A stretch of 24,103 bases of DNA from Candidatus Thorarchaeota archaeon (GTDB lineage: Archaea; Asgardarchaeota; Thorarchaeia; Thorarchaeales; Thorarchaeaceae), in contig JBHLRQ010000020.1 in assembly GCA_048882385.1 (NCBI GenBank), positions 16,385 to 40,487 of the forward strand, given 5' to 3'. This document shows positions 305-23,105 of this stretch, piece by piece. The translations under genes were made by a program, and so were the position numbers. The stretch's first letter is position 1; each line of letters opens with the position of its first letter. The notes beneath the pieces were generated by a model that saw nothing but the letters and a program-made list of their open reading frames with translations, ran no database searches and had not been told where the DNA came from.

Positions 305-1147
305 ATGATGAAAGACAAGGTTTGCATTGTAACAGGCAGTAACTCTGGGATTGGCAAAGAAACAGCTCTGGCCTTGGCTGAAATGGGAGCGACTGTGATT
401 TCAGTTGTTCGAAATCGAGAGCTAGGTGAACAGGCTTGTGAAGTTATAGTTGCAGAAACAGGGAATGACGCAGTTGAAATGATGCTCTGTGATTTATCAT
501 TAATGAGTACAATCAGGAAATTTGCAGAGGAATTCAAGAGCAAGTATGATCGTCTTGACGTCCTAATCAATAATGCAGGAGCAGTCTTTACCAAAAGACA
601 GGTCACAAATGAGGGATTTGAACGGACACTAGCAGTTAACTATCTAGCTCCATTTCTTCTCACTCATGAACTACTTCCACTCCTTAAGACAAGTGCGCCT
701 TCTAGGGTAATTAACCTCTCATCAGGTTTGGCAAATAGGGCTGAACTAAATCTAGAAGACTTGCAGAGTGAGTCAGGATACAAGTCCCGTAAAGTGTACG
801 GTAGTGCAAAGCTCAACGTTGAGATGTTTACATATGAGATGGCCCGACAGCTCGAGAGTACTGGTGTTTCAGTGAATGTAGTTCGACCTGGATTCGTTGC
901 AACGAATCTCGGTCGCAGCAGTGGTAGTTTCAGTTCTAGAATCATGTTTGGAATGATGAAACCATTCCAACTCAGTCCAAAGGAAGGTGCAGAAACCTCA
1001 GTCTATGTTGCATCTTCTCCAGAGATTGAAGGTGTAACAGGTAAATGTTTCAGAAAGTGTGAGGTGACAACAACCTCTGAGATATCGTATGATACTGAAA
1101 AACAGAAACAGCTCTGGGATGCTACTGTGGACCTTCTAGGGCTCTAG
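305..1147 (+). CDS. Short-chain dehydrogenase/reductase (retinol dehydrogenase-like classical SDR)
   Basis: TGSNSGIG Rossmann motif, INNAG, NLSS, and catalytic YxxxK (YGSAK). Confidence 0.93.
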   Translation: MMKDKVCIVTGSNSGIGKETALALAEMGATVISVVRNRELGEQACEVIVAETGNDAVEMMLCDLSLMSTIRKFAEEFKSKYDRLDVLINNAGAVFTKRQVTNEGFERTLAVNYLAPFLLTHELLPLLKTSAPSRVINLSSGLANRAELNLEDLQSESGYKSRKVYGSAKLNVEMFTYEMARQLESTGVSVNVVRPGFVATNLGRSSGSFSSRIMFGMMKPFQLSPKEGAETSVYVASSPEIEGVTGKCFRKCEVTTTSEISYDTEKQKQLWDATVDLLGL

Positions 1148-3232
1148 ATAGTGTCCAAACTTCTTCTTGAAGTTGTCAGCCAATTCTACGAACCCATACT
1201 TCTTCCAAGCTGCAATTGCTAATTCATAGGTTTCTTTGGACATAGTCAGATACTTTTCATCATCCAATCTTTTCCAAGCATGAGCCAATAGATCCATCAA
1301 AGTACTAGACATCATCGCAACCTCATAATCGAACTTGTTTGGATCCTGTACAATTATGCGGTTCAAATCAATGACTCTCTCTACCGTCTTCTTCAATTCA
1401 TCTTTGTCAAGATGATCTACAATTAGAGATGCGTGGAAACTTGCGGACATTGCATCATCGCGGATTACTTCACCAAACGATAAGAACCATTCCTGAACAT
1501 CAAGAGCAATATCTACGCATCTCTTTAACACCTCAATTTTCTCATCCCCTTCCAGCAGCCTTGCAGCAAGTGAGGTTAGAGCTGTGTTTGTATTGCTGAG
1601 ATATGTCGCATAGGTTGTGGGTCGGGTGATCTGCGCAGCATCTATGGTATTTACATCTAGTAGGTTTATAGCCGCATAAAGAAGTCGTATCTCGAATTCT
1701 GGTAATTGTTTCTCTCTTGCGAGAACTGGACCAATTGAGTTAGCCACAACAAAGAGAGAGAATCGCACTCTCTTCTTAGAAGACTCTGATTCCATTATCT
1801 CGTAAATATCTCCCAAGAATTCTATAGTCCGTTGAAGATGATGCTCTCTTGAAATGCCTGTTGATAAGAAGTAGTATTCTGCATGAGCCACACTCAGACT
1901 CTGAAACACACTATCGACTGTATATGCAAACAACGGAATATCGGTCTTCATCAAACCTCTGAAATAATCGCGATATAGCATGAGGACTTCTTCAAGAAAT
2001 CCAACCCGTTCACTGATTGTGAGTACTGGAGATTCAGTCAATGCTGTAAGTAACGCGATATAGTTCTGCAGCTTAAAGGATGCCGTGATGCCTATCTCCA
2101 TTCCCTTGCCTTCTTTCTGTAATTCCCATAGTAAATCGTCATCAAGAACCCAAGTGATGCTTCCAAGGATACTAGATATCTGAGATTTATAGAGACCAAG
2201 CTCATCTTTGAAACCATCATAACTAGTAATAGAATACAATTTGTCGAATATTCTTCTGCGTTCCTCAATAGCATCGATGAATGAGCAAACAACTTCAGAT
2301 TTCCCTTTGTATAGTTCTATTAATCTAGATGAAAACTCAGGATACTCTACAACAAGAGGGTCCAAAAACAAGAAACCAAGCATAAGATGTTCATCATCTT
2401 GCACGAAATCGAATTTTCTCATAGATTCTCTAAACACTCGAGTATAATCCGCGGGAATGACTTCTCCCGCTATAGTTCCTACAAGGACTTTAGCCAAACT
2501 AGTGAAAGGATAATCCTCAGGGAGTCTTGATACAATCTCTCTAAGTTCTTTCAAAGTCGGTGCGATTGTCTTTGTCATGGAATGCGTTAAGGATCCCATC
2601 TTGATACTTAAGATACTTGCAAGTTCACTCTCGTCTTTGGACGCCATAGCGCAGGCTCGATCAAATTCACCTCTTAACGCATGAAGAAGTGCATCTTTCA
2701 GTGTTCCTGAACACTCATTCTTGAACTCCAGCCATCTTTTTTCTGGTTCAGGTCGAGCAAGAAAATCATCCACTTCCTGAATTATGTTTGAAAATCGATT
2801 GTCCTTTTTTAAAACCTCAAAAATTGGATTCCACACACACGATAATGCAGAAGGAAATGATGTTTCTATGTGATCTCTGACATATGCACTTAGAATCCGA
2901 GCGATAATCTTCTTCTGTGTGTCATCTACAGAACCATCAGCAACACGAATTTCCGACGCATCAATCTTCTCTGCAATGACCCGTAAGAGACTGTCCATGT
3001 AATCTTCGGCTTTACTAACTAACGCAACAATCGTGAATCCCTTTCCAGATTCAGTCACAAGAAGTGTATCCTCCTTTAGAGCAAGTCGTCGGACCTCGCT
3101 GCCCATCATACTACTCAATGCCTTAGCTGACTCAATCAATGGTCCTAGGATGAGTTCCCCATCAGCCTCCATTGAGCTTTTAAACTCAATGGGGACCCCA
3201 CCTTCTGTCAGGACACCGATTAGTCTAATCAT
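1136..3232 (-). CDS. Hypothetical protein with a putative N-terminal longin-like domain and a long alpha-helical C-terminal region
   Basis: 698-aa ORF. The first ~120 aa show a longin-like pattern (MIRLIGVLTEGGVPI...LIESAKALSSMM..EVRRLAL..TLLVTES..FTIVALVS..LLRVIAEKI). The rest is Leu/Ala/Glu-rich and apparently helical. The CDS is well supported; the fold call is pattern-based. Confidence 0.65.
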   Translation of the reverse strand: MIRLIGVLTEGGVPIEFKSSMEADGELILGPLIESAKALSSMMGSEVRRLALKEDTLLVTESGKGFTIVALVSKAEDYMDSLLRVIAEKIDASEIRVADGSVDDTQKKIIARILSAYVRDHIETSFPSALSCVWNPIFEVLKKDNRFSNIIQEVDDFLARPEPEKRWLEFKNECSGTLKDALLHALRGEFDRACAMASKDESELASILSIKMGSLTHSMTKTIAPTLKELREIVSRLPEDYPFTSLAKVLVGTIAGEVIPADYTRVFRESMRKFDFVQDDEHLMLGFLFLDPLVVEYPEFSSRLIELYKGKSEVVCSFIDAIEERRRIFDKLYSITSYDGFKDELGLYKSQISSILGSITWVLDDDLLWELQKEGKGMEIGITASFKLQNYIALLTALTESPVLTISERVGFLEEVLMLYRDYFRGLMKTDIPLFAYTVDSVFQSLSVAHAEYYFLSTGISREHHLQRTIEFLGDIYEIMESESSKKRVRFSLFVVANSIGPVLAREKQLPEFEIRLLYAAINLLDVNTIDAAQITRPTTYATYLSNTNTALTSLAARLLEGDEKIEVLKRCVDIALDVQEWFLSFGEVIRDDAMSASFHASLIVDHLDKDELKKTVERVIDLNRIIVQDPNKFDYEVAMMSSTLMDLLAHAWKRLDDEKYLTMSKETYELAIAAWKKYGFVELADNFKKKFGHYLEP

Positions 3233-3378: not shown

Positions 3379-5118
3379 TCATCGAATAGAGAGTATTGAC
3401 GCTAGCAGCCAGGCACATAGTATTGCATTGACCATAGCTCCAAGCCATCGATTCCCTGTCACACGATATGCAAACATTGTGATTACAGTACATGCTGCAA
3501 ACCATGGAGTGAATGCATAGAAGAACAAAAACGAATATCCAATGATTCCTGGGATTAGAGGAGCACCAGCCAAGAATCCGCCGACATATTCGAACGTTAC
3601 AAGAATGAGGTATGGAAATGTTTTGATGAGTACGGCCTTTATGGTCCAACTCAATTGTACACTGGTCCAAGAGCCTTCACCTTTGGGTAACATTGGTCCA
3701 GTCAGCCAGGCTCCATCAATCAAGCAATAAATCAAGAACACAATGAAATACAGGGGTACAAAGTAGGATTGTGCAAGGGTGAGGTCATGGAGACCTGGTA
3801 GGAAGCATCGCAAATCCAACGCGAGTCCAAGGTCGACAATTAGAGTCAAAACGTACAACCAAATGACCACAATACATGCCAGAAAGAAGGTTCTCATGAT
3901 TTTTAGAACCGGCCTGTTACTCCCTGTGCCCAGTAATCTTTGTACTGACAGGATTGATTGAGAACGTCGGCGAAGGATGATAAACAAGAAAAGAACACCA
4001 ACAAGAGCGCTTCCAATCATCCATGACATTACCGGTATCCCATAATACTGCGGGAATGGTATCAGGAATGATAGTAAAGTTCCAACCAACAGGAACGGAA
4101 AGAACGTGATAGTACCAATTAATCCATACAAAATTCCATACCCTATGAACGACTTTGTTGTAGCAGGCTCCTCACTAGGAACACCTCTAAGGTCTGAGAA
4201 GAGTGGTATATTGAATAATATGACTATTAGAGGGAATATCGTTAACAGTGCTCCTAACAATCCTAAAAGTCCTCCAAATAACCAGAGTGGATAAAGGAGA
4301 TTATCACTAGCTATCCAGTGTTCATCCTCATTCCCTCCTTTCAGACTGTTCTTCATCCATTCAACACTTTCACTGACGATGACTGGATTTATTGTTTCGA
4401 ACAGATGATTTGAAGGCGGAAATACTGCTCTTCTTGCTGTATTGTTAGCAAAGTCACCATAAGTTGTGCTAGGTACAATACCTGTGACATTGAAGTAGGG
4501 TTCTAGTCTGGTGAGATTTTGAGGATAACTTGAAAGAGAGTCAAAGTAACCTGTGGCGATGAGTGTGTTTGGAATATATGCCGCCTCCGACCAGAAACCA
4601 GATCCAACAAGAACTAGTGCCCTAACATATACACTGGATTCCTCCATGGCACTCACAGCGATACCGCCTCCCATACTATGTCCAATCAATCCAATCTGAG
4701 TGTTGTCGACATAATCCAGAGAAGTGATATAGTTCAGTGCCGCAGTCCCACTACCTGAACCAACCTCTGAGTTTCCGTGGCCATTTGCATCTAATGTCAA
4801 TACAACAAATCCTCGTCTGGCTAGTTCTATTCCAAACGCCATCAACCATTCCTTGTTCTGGAGTGACCCATGAATGACAACTACTCCCGGCAATGGATCC
4901 GCGTCAGTCGCATAGTGAGGTTTCTGTAGTGTACTATGAATCCACGATCCATCAGCTGCCTGAAAATCAATCTCAGAAACAGCTACAGAGCCAAATCCAT
5001 TCTGCATACTGGCTGCGATCATGACTCCTGAAGACATTAGGATAAGTCCAATAAGAAGTACAAGGTATCTACGTTTCAATTGTGCACCACCTCTGCCATG
5101 TACTCTAGGTACTGTCAT
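3379..5118 (-). CDS. Membrane-bound alpha/beta-fold hydrolase (N-terminal anchor, hydrolase domain, multi-TM C-terminal domain)
   Basis: Hydrophobic N-terminal segment, VVVIHG oxyanion region, GHSMGG nucleophile elbow, candidate catalytic His in SNHLFE, then about 8-9 hydrophobic segments. Confidence 0.85.
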   Translation of the reverse strand: MTVPRVHGRGGAQLKRRYLVLLIGLILMSSGVMIAASMQNGFGSVAVSEIDFQAADGSWIHSTLQKPHYATDADPLPGVVVIHGSLQNKEWLMAFGIELARRGFVVLTLDANGHGNSEVGSGSGTAALNYITSLDYVDNTQIGLIGHSMGGGIAVSAMEESSVYVRALVLVGSGFWSEAAYIPNTLIATGYFDSLSSYPQNLTRLEPYFNVTGIVPSTTYGDFANNTARRAVFPPSNHLFETINPVIVSESVEWMKNSLKGGNEDEHWIASDNLLYPLWLFGGLLGLLGALLTIFPLIVILFNIPLFSDLRGVPSEEPATTKSFIGYGILYGLIGTITFFPFLLVGTLLSFLIPFPQYYGIPVMSWMIGSALVGVLFLFIILRRRSQSILSVQRLLGTGSNRPVLKIMRTFFLACIVVIWLYVLTLIVDLGLALDLRCFLPGLHDLTLAQSYFVPLYFIVFLIYCLIDGAWLTGPMLPKGEGSWTSVQLSWTIKAVLIKTFPYLILVTFEYVGGFLAGAPLIPGIIGYSFLFFYAFTPWFAACTVITMFAYRVTGNRWLGAMVNAILCAWLLASILSIR

Positions 5119-8162: not shown

Positions 8163-9878
8163 ATGACAAGGAATGCTGAAGTTGCTCGCGTTCTCAAAGA
8201 GATAGGTTTACTCCTAGAAATCGAAGGCAAAGATCGATTCAAACCCCGTGCGTACTTTCGTGGAATGCGATCTGTAACATCATTAGGAGAGGATATCGAA
8301 GCCATAGCCAAACGAGATGCTCTTACCGAAATCCAAGGTATTGGAAAGGGTCTCTCGGATGTCATCAAAAGCTATCTTGAAACTGGAGAAGTGGAACTTC
8401 TAACGGAACTTAGAACACGTGTTCCAGTTAAGGCATTAGAGCTCGATTCGATTCCTGGAGTGGGTCCAAAGACAATCAAACTTGTGTATGAGAAACTAGG
8501 TGTCACTGACATAGAATCGCTTGAAGCTGCAGCCAATCAGGGAAGGCTTTCAAATCTGCCAGGTCTTGGTGAAAAGACTCAGATACAAATCATTGAAGGA
8601 ATTCAAGTTGTTCGTGCTGGGCTTGAAAGGACTCTTCTTGCGGATGCATTATCTGCTGCAGAGAAAATTGAGAATGAGCTTCGAAAAGTGAAGACCGTGA
8701 CGCAACTAGTCATTGCAGGTTCAACGCGCCGTCGAAGAGAAACCATAGGCGATCTTGATTTCTTAGTTGATGCAACAGAACCTGAATCTGTTATGGAATC
8801 ATTCATCAACTCGGAAGGAGTAGCTACAATTACAGCACGTGGTCCTACCAAGTCATCAATTCGACTAGACTCTGGATTGCAGGTAGACCTCAGAGTCCTT
8901 TCTAGTGATAGTTTTGGTGCTGGTCTTCAGTATTTCACTGGAAGTGTGGATCACAACGTAAGGCTAAGATCAATTGCTAAAGAGAAGGGTCTACGCCTGA
9001 ACGAGTACGGTCTATTCAAGGATGAGCAGAAAATAGCTGGCGGGGATGAAGAGAATATCTACAAAACACTTGGACTACAATGGATTCCCCCAGAGCTGAG
9101 AGAAGATACTGGAGAAATCGAGGCTGCCCAAAATGGAGAACTACCTGAGCTAGTAGCTATGGAAAACATACGTGGTGACCTTCATAGCCACACTGACCAA
9201 TCAGATGGTAAAAACACGATTGAGGAAATGCTGGATGCGGCGCAGGCTCTTGAGTATGAGTACTACTGTGTATCTGATCATACACAAAGTCTAAGCATTG
9301 CCAACGGAATGGATGAAACTCGCCTTCTTAAGAGGATTGAAGAGATTGACGAGCTGAATACATCAGGTCGTTGGAAAATGAAGATCTTGAAGGGAGCAGA
9401 GGTAGACATACTAGCAGATGGCGGACTCGACATCGAAGATAGTGTGCTATCACAACTCGATATTGTGACCGGCTCAATACATAGTAGAATGAAGGACAAG
9501 AAAGAAACTATGACAGAACGTGTGTGTCATGCCTTACAGAATAAGTATGTTCACATTCTAGGACATCCTACTGGCCGCTTAATTGGCAAGAGGTCTGAAT
9601 TCGAAATCGATTTAGAGCGTGTGTTTGAAACAGCAAGGAAACACAACGTGATTATGGAGCTAAATGCTCATCCTCAAAGACTAGACCTCAATGCTGGAAA
9701 TCTCCGAGCTGCCATTAAGATTGGACTCAAGATTGCAATAAACACAGATGCACACAGAATCTCAGAACTTGATAATATGCGATTTGGTGTGTACCAGGCG
9801 CGACGAGGATGGTTGACTCCTGATGATGTCATCAATACCTACTCCTTGAAGAAACTGATGAATTCTATAAAGAAATAG
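8163..9878 (+). CDS. polX: DNA polymerase X / PHP-domain 3'-5' exonuclease
   Basis: HhH motifs (IQGIGK, IPGVGPKT, LPGLGEKT), AGSTRR, catalytic GDLD...VDLR, YFTGS..HN, and PHP motifs DLHSHT, SDH, GHP, NTDAH. Confidence 0.95.
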   Translation: MTRNAEVARVLKEIGLLLEIEGKDRFKPRAYFRGMRSVTSLGEDIEAIAKRDALTEIQGIGKGLSDVIKSYLETGEVELLTELRTRVPVKALELDSIPGVGPKTIKLVYEKLGVTDIESLEAAANQGRLSNLPGLGEKTQIQIIEGIQVVRAGLERTLLADALSAAEKIENELRKVKTVTQLVIAGSTRRRRETIGDLDFLVDATEPESVMESFINSEGVATITARGPTKSSIRLDSGLQVDLRVLSSDSFGAGLQYFTGSVDHNVRLRSIAKEKGLRLNEYGLFKDEQKIAGGDEENIYKTLGLQWIPPELREDTGEIEAAQNGELPELVAMENIRGDLHSHTDQSDGKNTIEEMLDAAQALEYEYYCVSDHTQSLSIANGMDETRLLKRIEEIDELNTSGRWKMKILKGAEVDILADGGLDIEDSVLSQLDIVTGSIHSRMKDKKETMTERVCHALQNKYVHILGHPTGRLIGKRSEFEIDLERVFETARKHNVIMELNAHPQRLDLNAGNLRAAIKIGLKIAINTDAHRISELDNMRFGVYQARRGWLTPDDVINTYSLKKLMNSIKK

Positions 9879-9914
9879 AATAGACCTAATCGACCTCTAA
9901 GTACATTCCATGAT

Positions 9915-9974
9915 AGTCACAATATGTGACTTCGTCCTGTGACCCTCACAAGTGGCTCCGCTATATATACTAAA
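9915..9974 (+). promoter_or_regulatory. Candidate promoter of the micro-ORF cluster: two palindromes plus a TATA box
   Basis: AGTCACA-ata-TGTGACT (9915-9931) and TGTGA-ccc-TCACA (9938-9950) lie upstream of TATATATA (9962-9969), about 35 nt before ATG 10002. Confidence 0.5.
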
Positions 9975-10001
9975 TCTGAGTAGTAATTCTTGTGAAACAT
10001 T

Positions 10002-10103
10002 ATGGCTCTAACAACTAATTCACGAAACACATCTGTGCTGAAGAAGAACAAGGTCAAGTTCTCAACTGAGGCTTTGACCCACGCAATGCTCTATCGGAGG
10101 TAA
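10002..10103 (+). CDS. Micro-ORF 1, 33 aa (MALTTNSRNTSVLKKNKVKFSTEALTHAMLYRR)
   Basis: First ATG after the TATA box. Its last codons and stop form the GGAGGT RBS of the next ORF. Confidence 0.45.
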   Translation: MALTTNSRNTSVLKKNKVKFSTEALTHAMLYRR

Positions 10104-10107
10104 TCCC

Positions 10108-10221
10108 ATGGCATTTGCGAAACTTCGGAAGAAACTTGGTGCTGAACCTGACCTTGAGAAACATCTGCGTACCAAGGCACAGGTACGCACTGAAGTCTAC
10201 AGATCCTCTTTCCAGAGGTAG
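10108..10221 (+). CDS. Micro-ORF 2, 37 aa, basic (MAFAKLRKKLGAEPDLEKHLRTKAQVRTEVYRSSFQR)
   Basis: GGAGGT RBS at 10096-10101, 6 nt before the ATG. Its end provides the GAGGT RBS of ORF 3. Confidence 0.55.
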   Translation: MAFAKLRKKLGAEPDLEKHLRTKAQVRTEVYRSSFQR

Positions 10222-10227
10222 ATTCAG

Positions 10228-10341
10228 ATGAATAAAACTGACTCTTCTCAAAGCACTGCCTCTTCAAAGGCGCAGAAGCATCAATCCCAGAAAGGTAGTA
10301 CCCTTACACTGGCTGAAGTACTCGCGTTAGAAGCAACGTGA
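10228..10341 (+). CDS. Micro-ORF 3, 37 aa, S/Q/K/T-rich (MNKTDSSQSTASSKAQKHQSQKGSTLTLAEVLALEAT)
   Basis: GAGGT RBS at 10215-10219, 8 nt before the ATG. The stop lies in a hairpin followed by a T tract. Confidence 0.45.
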   Translation: MNKTDSSQSTASSKAQKHQSQKGSTLTLAEVLALEAT

Positions 10342-10360
10342 GTACTATTCTCTTTTTTCT
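10317..10360 (+). terminator. Hairpin plus oligo-T terminator-like element
   Basis: AGTACTCGCGTT-agaagc-AACGTGAGTACT (12-bp stem, one G-U) followed by attctcttttttct. Confidence 0.55.
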
Positions 10361-10377
10361 CACCTTAATTCTGATTA

Positions 10378-11214
10378 CTAGTCCGAAATTATATCATTAA
10401 AAGCCAGACCTGCTCTCTGTCTGTGAGGCTCAATATCCCCAACGATTTTCATTCTATCGAGGTTGATTTCACCCAGACCCCGTTTCTTAGCCTCTTGTAG
10501 AACCGGCATCTCTGAAGGTTCAAATCCTACTAGATATCCTCCAACTGCTTCGACTGCAAATGCATCAGTGCCTACAATAAGGATATTCGGAGAGATTGTA
10601 ATTCGCTTCTTTTTGTAACCACGATAGACATGAGTAGCATCTATGACTGCTAAATCTATACCCCCAATCGCTTCATAGATGTCAAGAAGAGCAGTTGTGA
10701 GTTGGTCATGGAACCTGTGCTTTTTCGTGTCAGGTATCATTCCAAGCAAATTTTTGATTACAAAGCCCAGGTTCATGAGATCCTCAAGTCCAGCTTCCTC
10801 ATATCTTCTGGGAACATGAGTGCTGATGAAGGTGTTTGGCTCTGAGAATATCTGTGGAAAGGGGACAGTTTCTCCAGCAATTTCAACATCCTTCGTTTCT
10901 TTATCACTTGACAGATTGTACGGGACCACACGATCATTGAAACAATCTTTCCATATCTCTAGTCTTTCCAATCCCGGTCCTGCTCCACTATCAGATTCAG
11001 TGATTAAAATCTCGGATGCTTTATCAAAAGCATCAATGATTGATTGAAGGGTTTTGACGGTTGTACATATTCCAGTTTCAGTATTATAGATTCCAACCTT
11101 TACAACGACCCTTTTATCAGGTGAATTCATTTCGCTCATACCCTCGATATGGTTGATAGACTTTGAGAAAGAATCGTTGTCTACAATAACAACAGTTGGT
11201 CTCATTTTAGACAC
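10378..11214 (-). CDS. DUF362-like domain protein
   Basis: RVVVK, ILITESDSG, IKNLLGMIP..KHRFH, DLAVIDA, ILIVGTDAFAVEA and AKKRGLGEI resemble DUF362 proteins. Confidence 0.75.
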   Translation of the reverse strand: MSKMRPTVVIVDNDSFSKSINHIEGMSEMNSPDKRVVVKVGIYNTETGICTTVKTLQSIIDAFDKASEILITESDSGAGPGLERLEIWKDCFNDRVVPYNLSSDKETKDVEIAGETVPFPQIFSEPNTFISTHVPRRYEEAGLEDLMNLGFVIKNLLGMIPDTKKHRFHDQLTTALLDIYEAIGGIDLAVIDATHVYRGYKKKRITISPNILIVGTDAFAVEAVGGYLVGFEPSEMPVLQEAKKRGLGEINLDRMKIVGDIEPHRQRAGLAFNDIISD

Positions 11215-11381
11215 CCCCTAGACTGAGATTGGGTCAATAATAAGAATCACGTACTGCGCACATGCTGTGACTCGTCTGGAACACGTTTCACGGACTAAAC
11301 CATCCAGAGATGATCGGATTTGATTTCCTTACCCATTTATAATATCAAATCTTGATTACTTGATTATGGAAGTGATAGTCT

Positions 11382-11840
11382 TTGGACAATCATGACTTAC
11401 AGAGCTATATTGAAGTGCACAAAATAGAGGCTGAAATACTCCCCATGAAGGGTCGTGTTCATTCAGTCGATGCTGCTTCTAGTGAGCTTGGAGTCCCCCC
11501 AGAGCGATTCATCAAGACTGTTGTGTTCATAGCCAATGACAAAGTGATTCTCGCTATTGTGAATGGTACTGATCGCGCAAGCTCAAAGAGAGTAGGAAAG
11601 GCGATTGACCTACCACCTCCAGGACTTGCTTCACCTGAAGAGGCATTTGAGCTGACAGGATTCGAAGTCGGTGGAACACCTCCAATAGCTATATCGAACG
11701 CTCATGTGGTAATTGATACAAGAGTTATGGAAATGCCTGAGGTGATTGGAGGTGGTGGAACTGACAGGCACCTCCTCAGAATTAAACCTGAAGAAATCGT
11801 GAAAGACACCGGTGCGAAAATAGCTCGTATCAGAAAATAG
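11382..11840 (+). CDS. YbaK/EbsC/ProX-family aminoacyl-tRNA editing (deacylase) protein
   Basis: IKTVV conserved Lys, TGFEVGGTPP, and GGGG motif. Confidence 0.9.
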   Translation: MDNHDLQSYIEVHKIEAEILPMKGRVHSVDAASSELGVPPERFIKTVVFIANDKVILAIVNGTDRASSKRVGKAIDLPPPGLASPEEAFELTGFEVGGTPPIAISNAHVVIDTRVMEMPEVIGGGGTDRHLLRIKPEEIVKDTGAKIARIRK

Positions 11841-15037: not shown

Positions 15038-17509
15038 TTGTCAAAACTAGAACCTAAGATCAAATCCAAACGCTGGAAGCCTGATGCTGAGGCAGAGCTA
15101 CTTGAGCTCTGGAAGAATGAGGACACATATGAGTTCGATATGAACTCGGGTAAGACAATATATACCGTCGATACTCCTCCTCCATACCTCTCAGGTCCAA
15201 TGCATGTGGGTCAGGTGATCCATTATACACAGATTGACATTATTGCACGCTATCGTCGTATGCAGGGTTTAGAGGTGAATTTTCCTCTTGGAATTGATCG
15301 TAATGGCTTACCGGTAGAGGTCAGAGTTGAGCAGGATCTCGGCATAAATATGCATAGAACCCCACGTGACGAGTTTCTTCGCCTCTGTAAGAAACGCCTA
15401 GATGAAGACGAAATAATTACGCTTACAGGCTTCAAAAGATTGGGTATTGCTTTCAATACCTACGATGATGAGGGTAGTTATCGCACAGATAGTCCAAGAT
15501 ATAGAGCCGTGACACAAGCCACCTTCATTGACATTTGGAAGAAAGGACTTGTTTACAGTGATTACCGTCCCAATAATTGGTGTTTCGAATGCGGGACCAC
15601 AATTGCTGATGCTGAGGTGGAGTATAGAGAACGACCTACTCAGTTGCATTATCTCTACTTCAATGTGGAAGGACTAGAACCTCTCGAGATTGCTACAACC
15701 AGACCTGAGCTACTCTGTGCTTGTGGCGCTGTATTCGTGCATCCTGATGATGAGAGATATAGTTCATATCAGGGAAAGACTGCAAAGGTTCCTCTCTTTG
15801 AGCAAGAGGTACCAATCATCCCGAGTCCAACTGCACAGATGGAATTTGGGACAGGAGCTCTAATGGTGTGTAGTTATGGGGACCAAGACGATGTTATGGC
15901 ATTTCGGGACTATTCACTAACGCCAATTGCAGCTGTATCTACTGATGGTACTATGACAGAAGCTGCTCGAGAATATTCCGGTCTTAAGATCGAAGAGGCT
16001 CGCAAGAAAATCGTTGCAGATCTCAGGGAAAATGGTCTTCTATTCAAACAAGAAGACTCGATACAGAGAGTCCCTCATTGTTGGCGGAGTGGCACCCCTA
16101 TCGAGTTCATAGCGATGGATGAGTATTATGTGAAACAGGTCGATTTCATTGAGGACCTTCATAAGATTGCCAATGATACACCATTCTATCCTGATTTTCA
16201 CAGGCAAGTTCTAATTAATTGGCTCAACAGGGTGACAGTTGACTGGCCAGTGAGTCGTAGGCGGTATTACGGAACCGAGCTACCTATTTGGTATTGCAAA
16301 TCCTGCGGAGAAGCCGTGGTTCCTGAACCTGCGGATGATCCAATCTATTACCAGCCTTGGAGAGAAGATCCCCCATTCAAAGATTGTCCGAAATGTGATG
16401 CGAGTGAGGGCTTTACAGGTGAGGAGCGGACCTTTGACACATGGATGGACTCCTCGATAAGTGGAATGCAAGCTGTGGGGTACATGTATGATGACGAGCT
16501 ATTCAAGAAGGGTTTTGACAATGTCATGCGTCCCCAAGGAAAGGACATCGTCAGGACTTGGCTTTACTATTCCTTACTTCGAACTTTTCAATTGACTGGG
16601 AAACCTGCTTTCAGTGAGGTGTGGGTTTCTGGACATGTGGTAGACGACAAGGGCGAAACGATGAGCAAGTCAAAGGGAAACTCTCCTGCGCCAATGCCCT
16701 TTGTTGAGAAATATGGCGCTGATGCAATGCGTATCTTTGGTGCTCTAGAAGCTGGACTTGGTAGTGACATTAGATTCTCCGAGGACCGTCTAGCTGGAGT
16801 GTCGAGGTTTATGACAAAGCTCTACAATATTGCCCGGTTCATCTCAATGTTTCCAATTCCTGAAGATATCCCATTCGATAAGTTGACGCCCGTCGACCAG
16901 TGGATACTGGCAGAAGCAAATGCGCTTATTGAAAGGATTGTTCCTGAATGTGATCTCCTTGATTTCCACAAACCTGCAATCGAAATACGCGGCTTCACAT
17001 GGAATTTCTTTGCAGACCATGTGCTTGAGATGTTAAAGGGGAGGTCTTTCAACACAGAGGGTGTGTTTACTGAGGATGAACAGAAGTCAGCTTGGTTTAC
17101 TCTACATGAAGTGTTAAAGATCATATCAAGGGCATTAGCTCCGATAACTCCCTTCATAACCGATAAGATCTACCGAGACCTATATGATGAGAAGGGCATT
17201 CATCGTCAGAGATATCCCTCCTATGAGAAGACATGGAAATCGAGTCTCACAGACCACACTGAACTTCTGATGCAGACCAACTCTGGTTTCTGGAAGTTCA
17301 AACGTGAAACCGGACTCTCTCTCAGACAGGGTCTCGCCGAGGCGTACCTCTCCGAAGACCTGAAACCATGGATGAAGGACCTTCAGGCTATGCATGGTAT
17401 TGAGAAGCTAGGATTTGGAAAACCAGATGATGACAGGTTCGTAGAAGTGACTCTTCCAGAGTCAGAAAATGTAATCTACGTACTTCCACTAGTAGAAGAG
17501 AAAGAATGA
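15038..17509 (+). CDS. valS: Valine--tRNA ligase (archaeal type)
   Basis: DTPPPYLSGPMHVG (HIGH-like), ATTRPEL editing motif, DWPVSRRRYYG, DTWMDSS, PQGKDI, TMSKSKGN, YGADA. TTG 15038 follows an AAGGAG RBS (track start is 14951). Confidence 0.95.
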   Translation: MSKLEPKIKSKRWKPDAEAELLELWKNEDTYEFDMNSGKTIYTVDTPPPYLSGPMHVGQVIHYTQIDIIARYRRMQGLEVNFPLGIDRNGLPVEVRVEQDLGINMHRTPRDEFLRLCKKRLDEDEIITLTGFKRLGIAFNTYDDEGSYRTDSPRYRAVTQATFIDIWKKGLVYSDYRPNNWCFECGTTIADAEVEYRERPTQLHYLYFNVEGLEPLEIATTRPELLCACGAVFVHPDDERYSSYQGKTAKVPLFEQEVPIIPSPTAQMEFGTGALMVCSYGDQDDVMAFRDYSLTPIAAVSTDGTMTEAAREYSGLKIEEARKKIVADLRENGLLFKQEDSIQRVPHCWRSGTPIEFIAMDEYYVKQVDFIEDLHKIANDTPFYPDFHRQVLINWLNRVTVDWPVSRRRYYGTELPIWYCKSCGEAVVPEPADDPIYYQPWREDPPFKDCPKCDASEGFTGEERTFDTWMDSSISGMQAVGYMYDDELFKKGFDNVMRPQGKDIVRTWLYYSLLRTFQLTGKPAFSEVWVSGHVVDDKGETMSKSKGNSPAPMPFVEKYGADAMRIFGALEAGLGSDIRFSEDRLAGVSRFMTKLYNIARFISMFPIPEDIPFDKLTPVDQWILAEANALIERIVPECDLLDFHKPAIEIRGFTWNFFADHVLEMLKGRSFNTEGVFTEDEQKSAWFTLHEVLKIISRALAPITPFITDKIYRDLYDEKGIHRQRYPSYEKTWKSSLTDHTELLMQTNSGFWKFKRETGLSLRQGLAEAYLSEDLKPWMKDLQAMHGIEKLGFGKPDDDRFVEVTLPESENVIYVLPLVEEKE

Positions 17510-17540
17510 TTGGGCGAATCACAATCTCTCAATCTTTCAC

Positions 17541-17975
17541 TTATTCCACAAACACCTCATTCTCATGCTCAGTTAGACATTTCATACTATTCGAAACCAG
17601 ACAGTACTTCCCGGAAAGGTCCAACGCTCTCTCTGTCTTTGATCTAAGGTCTTCAGACTCAATACCAACCTTTGTCTTTAGTAGGATTTTCGTGAACTGG
17701 AATCCCTTTTCAACACGTTCTAGTGTACCATGTCCCTCACATGAGAAGGATTTGAAATCGATACGCATCTTCTTTGTGAAGCTCACAAATGTTGTCATGA
17801 AACAAGAAGCTGCTGATGCAACAAAGAGATCCTCAGGTGAGATTATTCCTTCAGGTCCATCAAACTCGGGCGGTGCAGAAACCTCGACCTTGGGTTTGCC
17901 CTCAACAATCATATCACCAACTCGACCGTGTTTCCAATCGATTCTTACTGTGTATTCGTGAGTTTCATCCGTCAT
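17541..17975 (-). CDS. OsmC/Ohr family protein
   Basis: APPEFDG..SPEDLFVASAASC and KYCLVSNS with two conserved Cys. ATG 17975 follows GGTGA. Confidence 0.9.
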   Translation of the reverse strand: MTDETHEYTVRIDWKHGRVGDMIVEGKPKVEVSAPPEFDGPEGIISPEDLFVASAASCFMTTFVSFTKKMRIDFKSFSCEGHGTLERVEKGFQFTKILLKTKVGIESEDLRSKTERALDLSGKYCLVSNSMKCLTEHENEVFVE

Positions 17976-23028: not shown

Positions 23029-23105
23029 TGGTGGACCGGGCGAGATTTGAACTCGCGACCTTCTGAATGCGAATCAGACGATCTACCAGTCTGATCTACC
23101 GGCCC
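23029..23105 (-). tRNA. tRNA-Ala(CGC), intronless, encoded CCA
   Basis: 77 nt: GGGCCGG/CCGGTCC acceptor with the G3-U70 Ala identity pair, TCTGA-TTCGCAT-TCAGA anticodon arm, GCGAG-TTCAAAT-CTCGC T arm, ACCA. TTTTAAG box about 28 nt upstream. Confidence 0.96.

Follow-up and report, generated by a model that had tools for sequence, protein, structure and literature searches.

Background

Very short intergenic distances accompany translational coupling and are enriched among genes encoding the subunits of heteromeric complexes (Huber et al. 2023, PMC10666635). Short genes in close succession are also a feature of the multi-peptide leaderless bacteriocins aureocin A70, garvicin KS and the cereucins (PMC6131525), and short open reading frames (ORFs) in front of larger genes are represented by termination-arrest leaders of the SpeFL type (10.1101/604074). 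At the level of the promoter, TrmBL1 binds the glycolytic motif TATCAC-N5-GTGATA of the Thermococcales and activates transcription from upstream of the TATA box (PMC4706686). The present analysis concerns a stretch of 24,103 nucleotides from contig JBHLRQ010000020.1 of a Candidatus Thorarchaeota archaeon (assembly GCA_048882385.1), referred to as the window, in which positions 9915-10358 constitute a compact conserved expression unit. This unit comprises three tandem genes for small proteins, termed A, B and C, and the copy adjacent to the polX gene is one of several per genome.

The unit shares features with each of these systems. Like the coupled gene pairs of Huber et al. (PMC10666635), it consists of unidirectional cistrons that lie 4 to 7 nt apart, with a ribosome-binding site inside the end of the previous gene and a spacing that is conserved in 21 operons. 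Unlike those pairs, its products have only 27-43 residues, its gaps of +4 to +7 nt contrast with the overlaps of -4 or -1 that dominate in the reported pairs, and the coupling is a predicted one. The window set, like the leaderless bacteriocins (PMC6131525), consists of tandem genes for unprocessed cationic peptides of some 30-44 residues, and the likeness extends to the number of tandem paralogous genes (three to four), to the typical peptide length of about 30 residues and to the presence of a transporter gene in some loci. The peptides of the present family are hydrophilic, however, with a grand average of hydropathy (GRAVY) of about -0.6 compared with +0.5 to +0.7 in the bacteriocins, one member is usually acidic, and the host is an archaeon. 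Moreover, the transporter belongs to the major facilitator superfamily (MFS) and is found in paralogous loci only, whereas the window copy has polX and a DUF362 gene as neighbours and no immunity gene was seen.

With the SpeFL-type leaders (10.1101/604074) the family has in common a length of about 30-34 residues, a conserved C-terminal part and the position of paralogous ORFs immediately in front of a gene for a transporter or an enzyme. It differs from them in that sequence likeness is absent, several paralogues occur in succession, and the A-B-C form that stands alone is closed by a terminator and not followed by a larger gene. The sole downstream cistron in the window is gene C with its 37 residues, the corresponding position in paralogous loci being occupied by an MFS pump or a GNAT gene, and none of the three peptides gave a significant match to a leader family in Pfam or NCBIfam (e.g. 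DUF2618 for SpeFL). The palindrome at the left edge of the unit, AGTCAC-N5-GTGACT at 9915-9931, resembles the TrmBL1 site (PMC4706686) in its pair of hexamers, which flank 5 nt and have TCAC/GTGA as their core, and it is located 31 nt upstream of the TATA box. Its half-sites are AGTCAC/GTGACT instead of TATCAC/GTGATA, it is accompanied by further single GTGAC sites, and it belongs to a lineage other than that of the Thermococcales consensus. The TrmB consensus TATCAC-N5-GTGATA is accordingly not matched in the window, where the outer half-site bases differ, and the shorter form ATCAC-N5-GTGAT occurs only twice in the source genome.

Results and discussion

A conserved three-gene unit downstream of polX

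The intergenic region between the stop codon of polX (8163-9878, plus strand) and the end of the convergently oriented DUF362 gene (10378-11214, minus strand), both of which were confirmed by Pfam, measures 499 nt and contains three ATG-initiated ORFs on the plus strand. These are gene A at 10002-10103 (33 residues), gene B at 10108-10221 (37 residues) and gene C at 10228-10341 (37 residues), separated by 4 and 6 nt. An earlier note, made from the letters of the window alone, had described this gap as a hidden operon of small proteins that belong to no recognised family, with AGG-stop gene ends serving as ribosome-binding sites, a preceding TATA box and a closing hairpin with a T tract. On re-reading, every coordinate of the ORFs and their spacing proved correct, the other elements were located as given below, and the general structure was borne out, that of three conserved coding genes under a promoter of their own, linked by chained ribosome-binding sites and closed by a terminator. 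To gauge chance, the gap was resampled 20,000 times with a first-order Markov model; 21 of the resamples, with either strand considered, contained a series of three or more ATG ORFs (minimum 30 residues) that followed one another on the same strand at distances of -4 to 10 nt.

When 61 related genomes were compared, the DNA of the gap matched 35. These belong to a single family and include 34 of the 36 other genomes of this family and all 27 of the genus. Among the first 20 loci fetched, polX was located directly upstream in 13, and the same A-B-C set follows polX in 13 genomes of the genus, with a distance of 102-124 nt between the polX stop and the ATG of A where measured. The gene downstream of the unit differs, being DUF362 in two genomes only and tRNA genes or ybaK elsewhere. 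The position of the unit is therefore fixed with respect to polX but not to DUF362.

Evidence for protein-coding genes

The ratio of non-synonymous to synonymous change (pN/pS) was calculated from 11 polX-syntenic orthologues and compared between the reading frame and the two shifted frames. It amounted to 0.43 in frame for gene A (shifted frames 1.13 and 1.10), 0.43 for gene B (0.93 and 1.20) and 0.61 for gene C (0.71 and 1.24), the respective values for polX being 0.13 in frame and 1.44 and 2.68 in the shifted frames. Most of the change falls at third codon positions. None of the three ORFs is disrupted in any of the 12 polX-syntenic loci that were compared, and some start codons there are GTG or TTG. 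The frame of gene C is open in all 21 A-B-C operons that were aligned, and stops are present in the +1 frame in 19 and in the +2 frame in 21 of them. The minus-strand ORFs of the window, with 65 and 58 residues, are not conserved in orthologues; the longest open minus-strand stretch varied between 19 and 108 codons among 12 loci. Judged by these patterns of substitution, A, B and C are real protein-coding genes.

The same data bear on the view that the region is non-coding, acting as a structured RNA or as a regulatory DNA repeat with incidental ORFs. The predicted 371-nt transcript does fold better than shuffled sequences (z-score -3.84, with none of 100 shuffles equally stable), and nucleotide conservation peaks in the upstream 100 nt and in the first codons of gene A. 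This view is nevertheless close to refuted by the frame-specific pN/pS values and the excess of third-position change, and by three frames that remain open, with conserved starts and stops, across the 21 operons and in distant paralogues. The peptide motifs are, in addition, preserved by means of differing codons. A consensus fold of 12 orthologous transcripts gave a covariation term of +0.12 with compensatory change at 4 of 49 pairs, and thus no support outside the terminator. Rfam yielded no match to the unit, its only hit being a tRNA at 23032-23105.

The three peptides

Genes A and B encode basic microproteins that score 62.1 and 32.9 bits, respectively, with the full A/B profile built in this analysis from alignment A1, whereas gene C scores 64.4 bits with a profile of its own. 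A and B are paralogues, with B as the divergent member. Members of the A/B family comprise 27-37 residues, start with M-A-[LF], are basic, hydrophilic and devoid of Cys and of a membrane segment, and end in the motif S-T-x-A-[LIV]-x-x-A-Y-x-[YF]-R-(R), with conservation covering the entire peptide in both paralogues. Their net charge is about +5, the median GRAVY is -0.57 for A and -0.64 for B, and the peak 15-residue hydropathy means of 0.10 (A) and -0.33 (B) are too low for a membrane segment. The window A has a net charge of +6, no Cys and 58-82% identity to its orthologues. The window B is a drifted variant with an insertion of 6-7 residues, otherwise found in two other genomes only (loci L002 and L003), and its C-terminal motif has drifted as well. 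Gene C specifies a peptide with a variable, Ser/Thr-rich and usually acidic N-terminal part and the near-invariant, helix-like end L-[ST]-L-x-E-V-L-A-L-E-A-T, which reads EVLALEAT at the terminus of the window copy.

Tandem paralogous genes for peptides of about 30 residues with a charge near +5 and no leader or signal sequence are also what would be expected if A and B were exported in unmodified form as cationic antagonistic or signalling peptides, with a chained MFS protein as exporter or immunity pump in some loci. Paralogous loci indeed chain directly to an MFS gene of the 'transmembrane secretion effector' type (PF05977), and aureocin A70 provides a described operon of four peptides with 30-31 residues and a charge of +4/+5 (PMC6131525). 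The peptides of aureocin A70, however, have a GRAVY of +0.53 to +0.71 according to the same source, whereas A and B are hydrophilic and lack any 15-residue stretch of membrane grade. Since the window copy and most A-B-C copies have no adjoining transporter or immunity gene, and several genera with the peptides yielded no orthologue of the pump, export of this kind seems improbable.

Structure prediction was carried out with AlphaFold2 on a 72-residue database protein that spans B and C (alignment A3) and returned two helices with no confident packing (pLDDT, the predicted local distance difference test, 60.9; pTM, the predicted template modelling score, 0.29). A complex prediction for A, B and C (alignments A5, A6 and A2) gave a score of 0.02, which, being obtained without controls, weighs neither way. 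The best ESM Atlas match of peptide A (score 0.80) fell on unrelated aldolase clusters and was discarded as noise. Proteasome-docking C-termini of the HbYX type were likewise considered and rejected, as some B peptides end in Hb-Y-R but A ends in Y-R-R and many B peptides in F-R-R, and the Arg codons are explained by the embedded ribosome-binding site described next.

Chained ribosome-binding sites and the B-C junction

The last two Arg codons and the stop codon of gene A (CGG AGG TAA) contain the sequence GGAGGT at 10096-10101, located 6 nt in front of the ATG of gene B, and the end of gene B (CAG AGG TAG) contains GAGGT at 10215-10219, located 8 nt in front of the ATG of gene C; both are on the plus strand. 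Each following cistron in the window thus begins within 7 nt of a stop codon, with a Shine-Dalgarno (SD) sequence inside the last codons of the preceding gene. SD-like pentamers precede 24.9% of 1411 long ORFs in the source genome, compared with 6.9% at an in-gene control position, so that the AGG-stop ends are reasonably read as ribosome-binding sites, as the earlier note had read them; a 16S rRNA gene from which to read the anti-SD sequence is not contained in the assembly. Since the terminal Arg codons double as the next SD sequence, much of the recurrent ending in two Arg residues and a stop codon is explained in this way.

The arrangement is conserved. The sequence CGGAGGT(A/G)A is preserved in most of the 21 A-B-C operons, and the gap between A and B measures 4 nt in 11 of them, 5 nt in one, 6 nt in five and 7 nt in four, while B and C are separated by 6 nt and share the same frame in 18. 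The stop codon is TAA in 17 and TGA in four copies of A, TAG in 17, TAA in two and TGA in two copies of B, and TGA in 20 of the 21 copies of C; genome-wide usage is even (TAG 454, TGA 521 and TAA 436 among the 1411 long ORFs).

Given the 6-nt in-frame spacing, read-through of the TAG codon would yield a B-C fusion. Thirteen database proteins of 69-72 residues from short ENA contigs (P0002, P0011, P0020, P0031-P0039 and P0041) have exactly the composition B, Gln, two residues and C. The invariant Gln is located at the position of the TAG codon of B, and one of these proteins is nearly identical to the B of locus L004 followed by TAG read as Gln and by C. A natural B-C fusion was rejected on this ground, as the database proteins are most simply, and probably, gene calls made under a genetic code in which TAG specifies Gln. 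Decoding of the TAG as pyrrolysine was also dismissed, because neither PylS (TIGR02367, in a genome that is 95.3% complete) nor a tRNA with a CUA anticodon was detected, the latter negative being limited by the fact that ARAGORN found 22 tRNAs in all.

The shared promoter module

Upstream of gene A, an alignment of 39 copies (alignment A4, with the window copy as row 1) revealed a module of about 90 nt that is common to 35 of them and has the order palindrome, TGTGACCC, GTGGCTYCGC, TATATATA, TTGTGAA and ATG; it is located directly upstream of the A gene in the window. The sharp left edge of the module is formed by the operator-like palindrome AGTCACA-N3-TGTGACT (9915-9931, plus strand; core GTCAC-N5-GTGAC), which is near-invariant in these 35 copies, and the DNA to the left of it is unrelated between copies. 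It is followed on the same strand by a third GTGAC site (TGTGACCC, 9938-9945), by the conserved block GTGGCTCCGC at the position of a TFB recognition element together with the TATA box TATATATA (9952-9969, the TATA box itself at 9962-9969), and by the TTGTGAA block and a short leader in front of the ATG (9990-10001), which form invariant or near-invariant alignment columns. From the spacing between TATA box and start that is usual in archaea, transcription would be expected to begin near 9992-9994. The module contains a strong TATA promoter and is among the most conserved promoters met in the Thorarchaeota genomes analysed.

The core GTCAC-N5-GTGAC occurs five times in the source genome, and four of these occurrences are within promoters of this type, designated P1. 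A 19-mer from the promoter, GTGGCTYCGCTATATATAC, was found at 86 places in 185,579 species genomes, nearly all with record titles naming Thorarchaeota, and had no match in viral contigs. An origin of the unit from a mobile element or virus was rejected in view of this lack of viral matches and of the absence of terminal repeats. The earlier note had called the operon regulated; the operon part of this claim stands, and the regulated part is drawn solely from the near-invariant palindrome and the repeated GTGAC sites upstream of the TATA box. We propose that the palindrome is a putative operator and that a transcription factor recognises GTCAC-N5-GTGAC, although among the neighbours of the window copy and of the paralogues in the source genome no DNA-binding or regulator gene recurs next to P1 copies.

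The terminator hairpin

The unit is closed by a terminator-like hairpin at 10317-10346 (plus strand) with 12 pairs, G-U pairs included, a 6-nt loop and a folding energy of -21.3 kcal/mol (z-score -2.62), followed by the tract TTTTTT at 10353-10358 (plus strand) as the likely transcription stop; the aligned operons likewise have a T-rich run after the hairpin. The hairpin is kept in all 21 operons, where 88.9% of the alignment cells pair, compared with 16-47% in slid controls. Compensatory change is present at four of the 12 pairs, one of which appears as GC in nine, AU in seven and GU in five operons. Other alternative structures with covariation were not found in the mRNA, the terminator hairpin being the sole helix of more than four pairs with compensatory change.

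The 5' arm of the hairpin is formed by the EVLAL codons of gene C and the 3' arm by its last codon, the stop codon and 5 further nt. As the conserved end of C coincides with the 5' arm, constraints on the peptide and on the RNA overlap there, and one stretch of bases can encode both a terminator hairpin and the C-terminus of a protein. A scan of the minus strand additionally recorded an 8-pair palindromic hairpin at 10166-10189, within the variant of gene B that is present in the source genome.

Family distribution and paralogous copies

The A/B profile matched 63 of 76 sampled genomes of the family f1, titled Thorarchaeota, with up to 12 matches per genome. In the same phylum, 224 genomes of 29 other families gave no match. 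A comparison with 1.84 billion representative proteins returned only 30 clusters at E <= 0.001, all of them with 29-72 residues. Pfam and NCBIfam contain no significant family for A, B or C, in agreement with the earlier note, the lone Pfam hit being far below the cut-off. A description of the family was not found in the literature naming Thorarchaeota or Asgard, at the level of listings and abstract openings. Going beyond the earlier note, these comparisons indicate that the first two ORFs are paralogous and that the unit is a single representative of a previously undescribed gene family, which has many copies and a shared promoter and is restricted to Thorarchaeota, a lineage of Asgard archaea. 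The genes are missed by gene callers and curated libraries, yet several copies are present in most of the sampled Thorarchaeota genomes.

The source genome contains further copies on contigs C2, C19, C23 and C31. A second full A-B-C trio is located on contig C31 behind a different and unrelated promoter, which shows that the trio itself is the conserved unit. The promoter of this trio (L023:6382-7780) carries a GTGTT..AACAC inverted repeat. A gene for 251 residues divergent to the trio is weakly similar to the ArsR-type regulator PH1932 (1ULY, E 0.005), and a TrmB-family gene is located two genes away. The PH1932-like gene was discarded as a regulator of the family, since it stands beside the C31 paralogue only and its own paralogue on contig C237 has no adjacent peptide genes.

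The survey of copies also bears on the suggestion of the earlier note that the ORFs might encode peptide precursors, that is, precursors of ribosomally synthesised and post-translationally modified peptides (RiPPs). A small multi-copy paralogous family with a conserved aromatic/Arg C-terminal motif would be compatible with such a function, and a distant copy on contig C23 is convergent to a radical SAM gene. No maturase family, however, recurs beside the window copy, the paralogues of the source genome or the polX-syntenic orthologues, the neighbours being polX, DUF362, tRNA genes, MFS, GNAT and others. A and B are, furthermore, free of Cys, and both ends of the peptides are conserved, which is at odds with a leader followed by a variable core. 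A role as RiPP precursors is thus very improbable, and it is the least likely of the functions that the earlier note had listed, because no maturase recurs beside the copies.

Genes under the shared promoter and the proposed role

Among 80 fetched loci with the promoter 19-mer, a peptide gene is located downstream in 71; 22 loci are of the A-B-C form, 16 run into an orthologous MFS_C2-type pump (PF05977/PF07690 type) and three into a GNAT gene. The pump gene starts 5 nt after the last peptide stop in nine of 15 loci, with the SD sequence inside the peptide end. Orthologues of the pump are present in 41 of 81 genomes of the family. All five genomes of genus g4 contain the peptides and none of seven the pump, and in genus g6 the peptides are present in three of three genomes and the pump in none of three. 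The peptides therefore do not depend on the pump. In the source genome, promoters with the same palindrome/GTGAC/TATA layout precede genes for a GNAT fusion of 1106 residues (contig C50, L025), a bactofilin-domain protein of 418 residues (contig C159:1-1500, L143) and a membrane protein of 363 residues that has no Pfam family (contig C6, L026).

The reading that we favour, and to which we would give an even chance, is that A, B and C are microproteins that act in trans within a small regulon, specific to the lineage, for envelope, efflux or stress functions. A single mRNA of about 360 nt would deliver the three products in fixed proportions. Working in trans as small proteins of the cytoplasm, A and B would be basic helices that attach to a macromolecule, and C would pair with them or modulate them. 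The predicted transcription factor acting on GTCAC-N5-GTGAC would switch the unit together with the MFS pump chain, the GNAT fusion, the bactofilin-domain gene and the membrane protein. Action in trans is supported by conservation that covers whole peptides and both paralogues, by net charges of about +5 for A and B and a median of -3 for C, and by the commonest form of the unit, A-B-C, which terminates by itself and is not followed by a larger gene. Since its promoter and operator are defined, its regulon is small and its three peptides can be synthesised, the system offers a tractable way into the study of gene regulation and of small proteins in Asgard archaea.

Several findings weigh against this proposal. 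Among RNA runs, none was listed as containing positions 8200-11200 of the window. The net charge of C has a median of -3 but amounts to +1 in the window, so that the window C is not acidic, and its N-terminal part is weakly constrained, with a pN/pS of 0.69 compared with 0.34 in the last 14 codons. The conservation of the C end may, in turn, partly act at the level of the RNA. Synonymous sites of gene A are unusually conserved (pS, the proportion of synonymous change, 0.205 compared with 0.69 in polX), above all in the first 12 codons, and such a constraint on the nucleotides also fits a cis-acting role. Finally, the MFS_C2-type pump usually stands directly behind the peptide genes, as expected of a leader cassette.

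These last points lead to the explanation that A and B act in cis, as sensor or leader ORFs, in which a ligand- or drug-dependent pause at the stop codon sets the translation of the chained cistron, be it C, the MFS pump or GNAT. A peptide of about 30 residues would still be wholly inside the ribosomal exit tunnel when the stop codon is reached, and a precedent exists in SpeFL, a leader of 34 residues that stalls at the stop codon (10.1101/604074). The combination of one promoter and one A/B cassette with different cargo genes, in the proportions given above, agrees with this model, as do the short spacing of the pump gene, the position of pump orthologues right behind peptide genes in many genomes, the conserved synonymous sites of A and the constraint on this peptide, which peaks in its C-terminal half (pN/pS 0.37 compared with 0.73 in the first 12 codons). 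On the other hand, two to four paralogous peptides in tandem are atypical of leader control, the commonest cargo is itself a peptide of 37 residues, and genera g4 and g6 hold the peptides while a pump orthologue was not found in them. Likeness to known arrest peptides was not detected in Pfam, and no alternative covarying RNA structures were detected in the mRNA. On balance we consider control by such leaders unlikely, though still a real contender. A more specific version of it, in which A and B would form an archaeal ribosome-tunnel sensor cassette where a metabolite or ribosome-targeting compound pauses the ribosome and thereby gates C, MFS efflux pumps or an acetyltransferase, is less probable again. 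If true, archaea would thereby gain their first described system of ligand-sensing arrest peptides, one that is modular, multi-copy and present in close relatives of eukaryotes.

Further observations

In the loci of the pump and GNAT type, a second near-invariant element of about 90 nt is located between gene A and the next gene. It was recorded in 24 unique copies, namely at L022:6919-7073 (contig C2), in L021 (contig C19), in L025 (contig C50) and in 21 further loci. The element consists of three direct TGGTCA(C) repeats 11-12 nt apart, AGTCTCAGAAA..CATATC, an inverted GTGACCA, a TATA-like CCTATAG, TGTGAA and ATG. An ORF of 39-41 codons that overlaps the element is frame-broken in some copies, and a single-sequence RNA fold was not special (z-score -1.36). 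The element is more suggestive of an internal operator with a promoter than of an RNA or a gene. A conserved ORF for some 37 residues, ending in ..QNIA[VL]RKMLIS.., was noticed in L021 (contig C19, approximately 4020-4140, minus strand) and in L072, where it separates the peptide genes from an MFS gene of the C19 type.

With respect to the neighbourhood of the operon, a ybaK-like (tRNA_edit) gene or a tRNA gene follows it directly elsewhere in the genus, and in the source genome and one other genome DUF362 is placed between the operon and ybaK (10378-11840). A second DUF362 gene is located near the copy on contig C19. Two ORFs of the window, specifying 698 residues (1136-3232, minus strand) and 151 residues (17506-17961, plus strand), have no Pfam family at E <= 1e-4. 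The set of only 22 tRNAs reported by ARAGORN for a genome that is about 95% complete perhaps reflects intron-bearing tRNA genes, and the program additionally reported a tRNA-Sec and two odd 99-nt calls of the type 'tRNA-???'.

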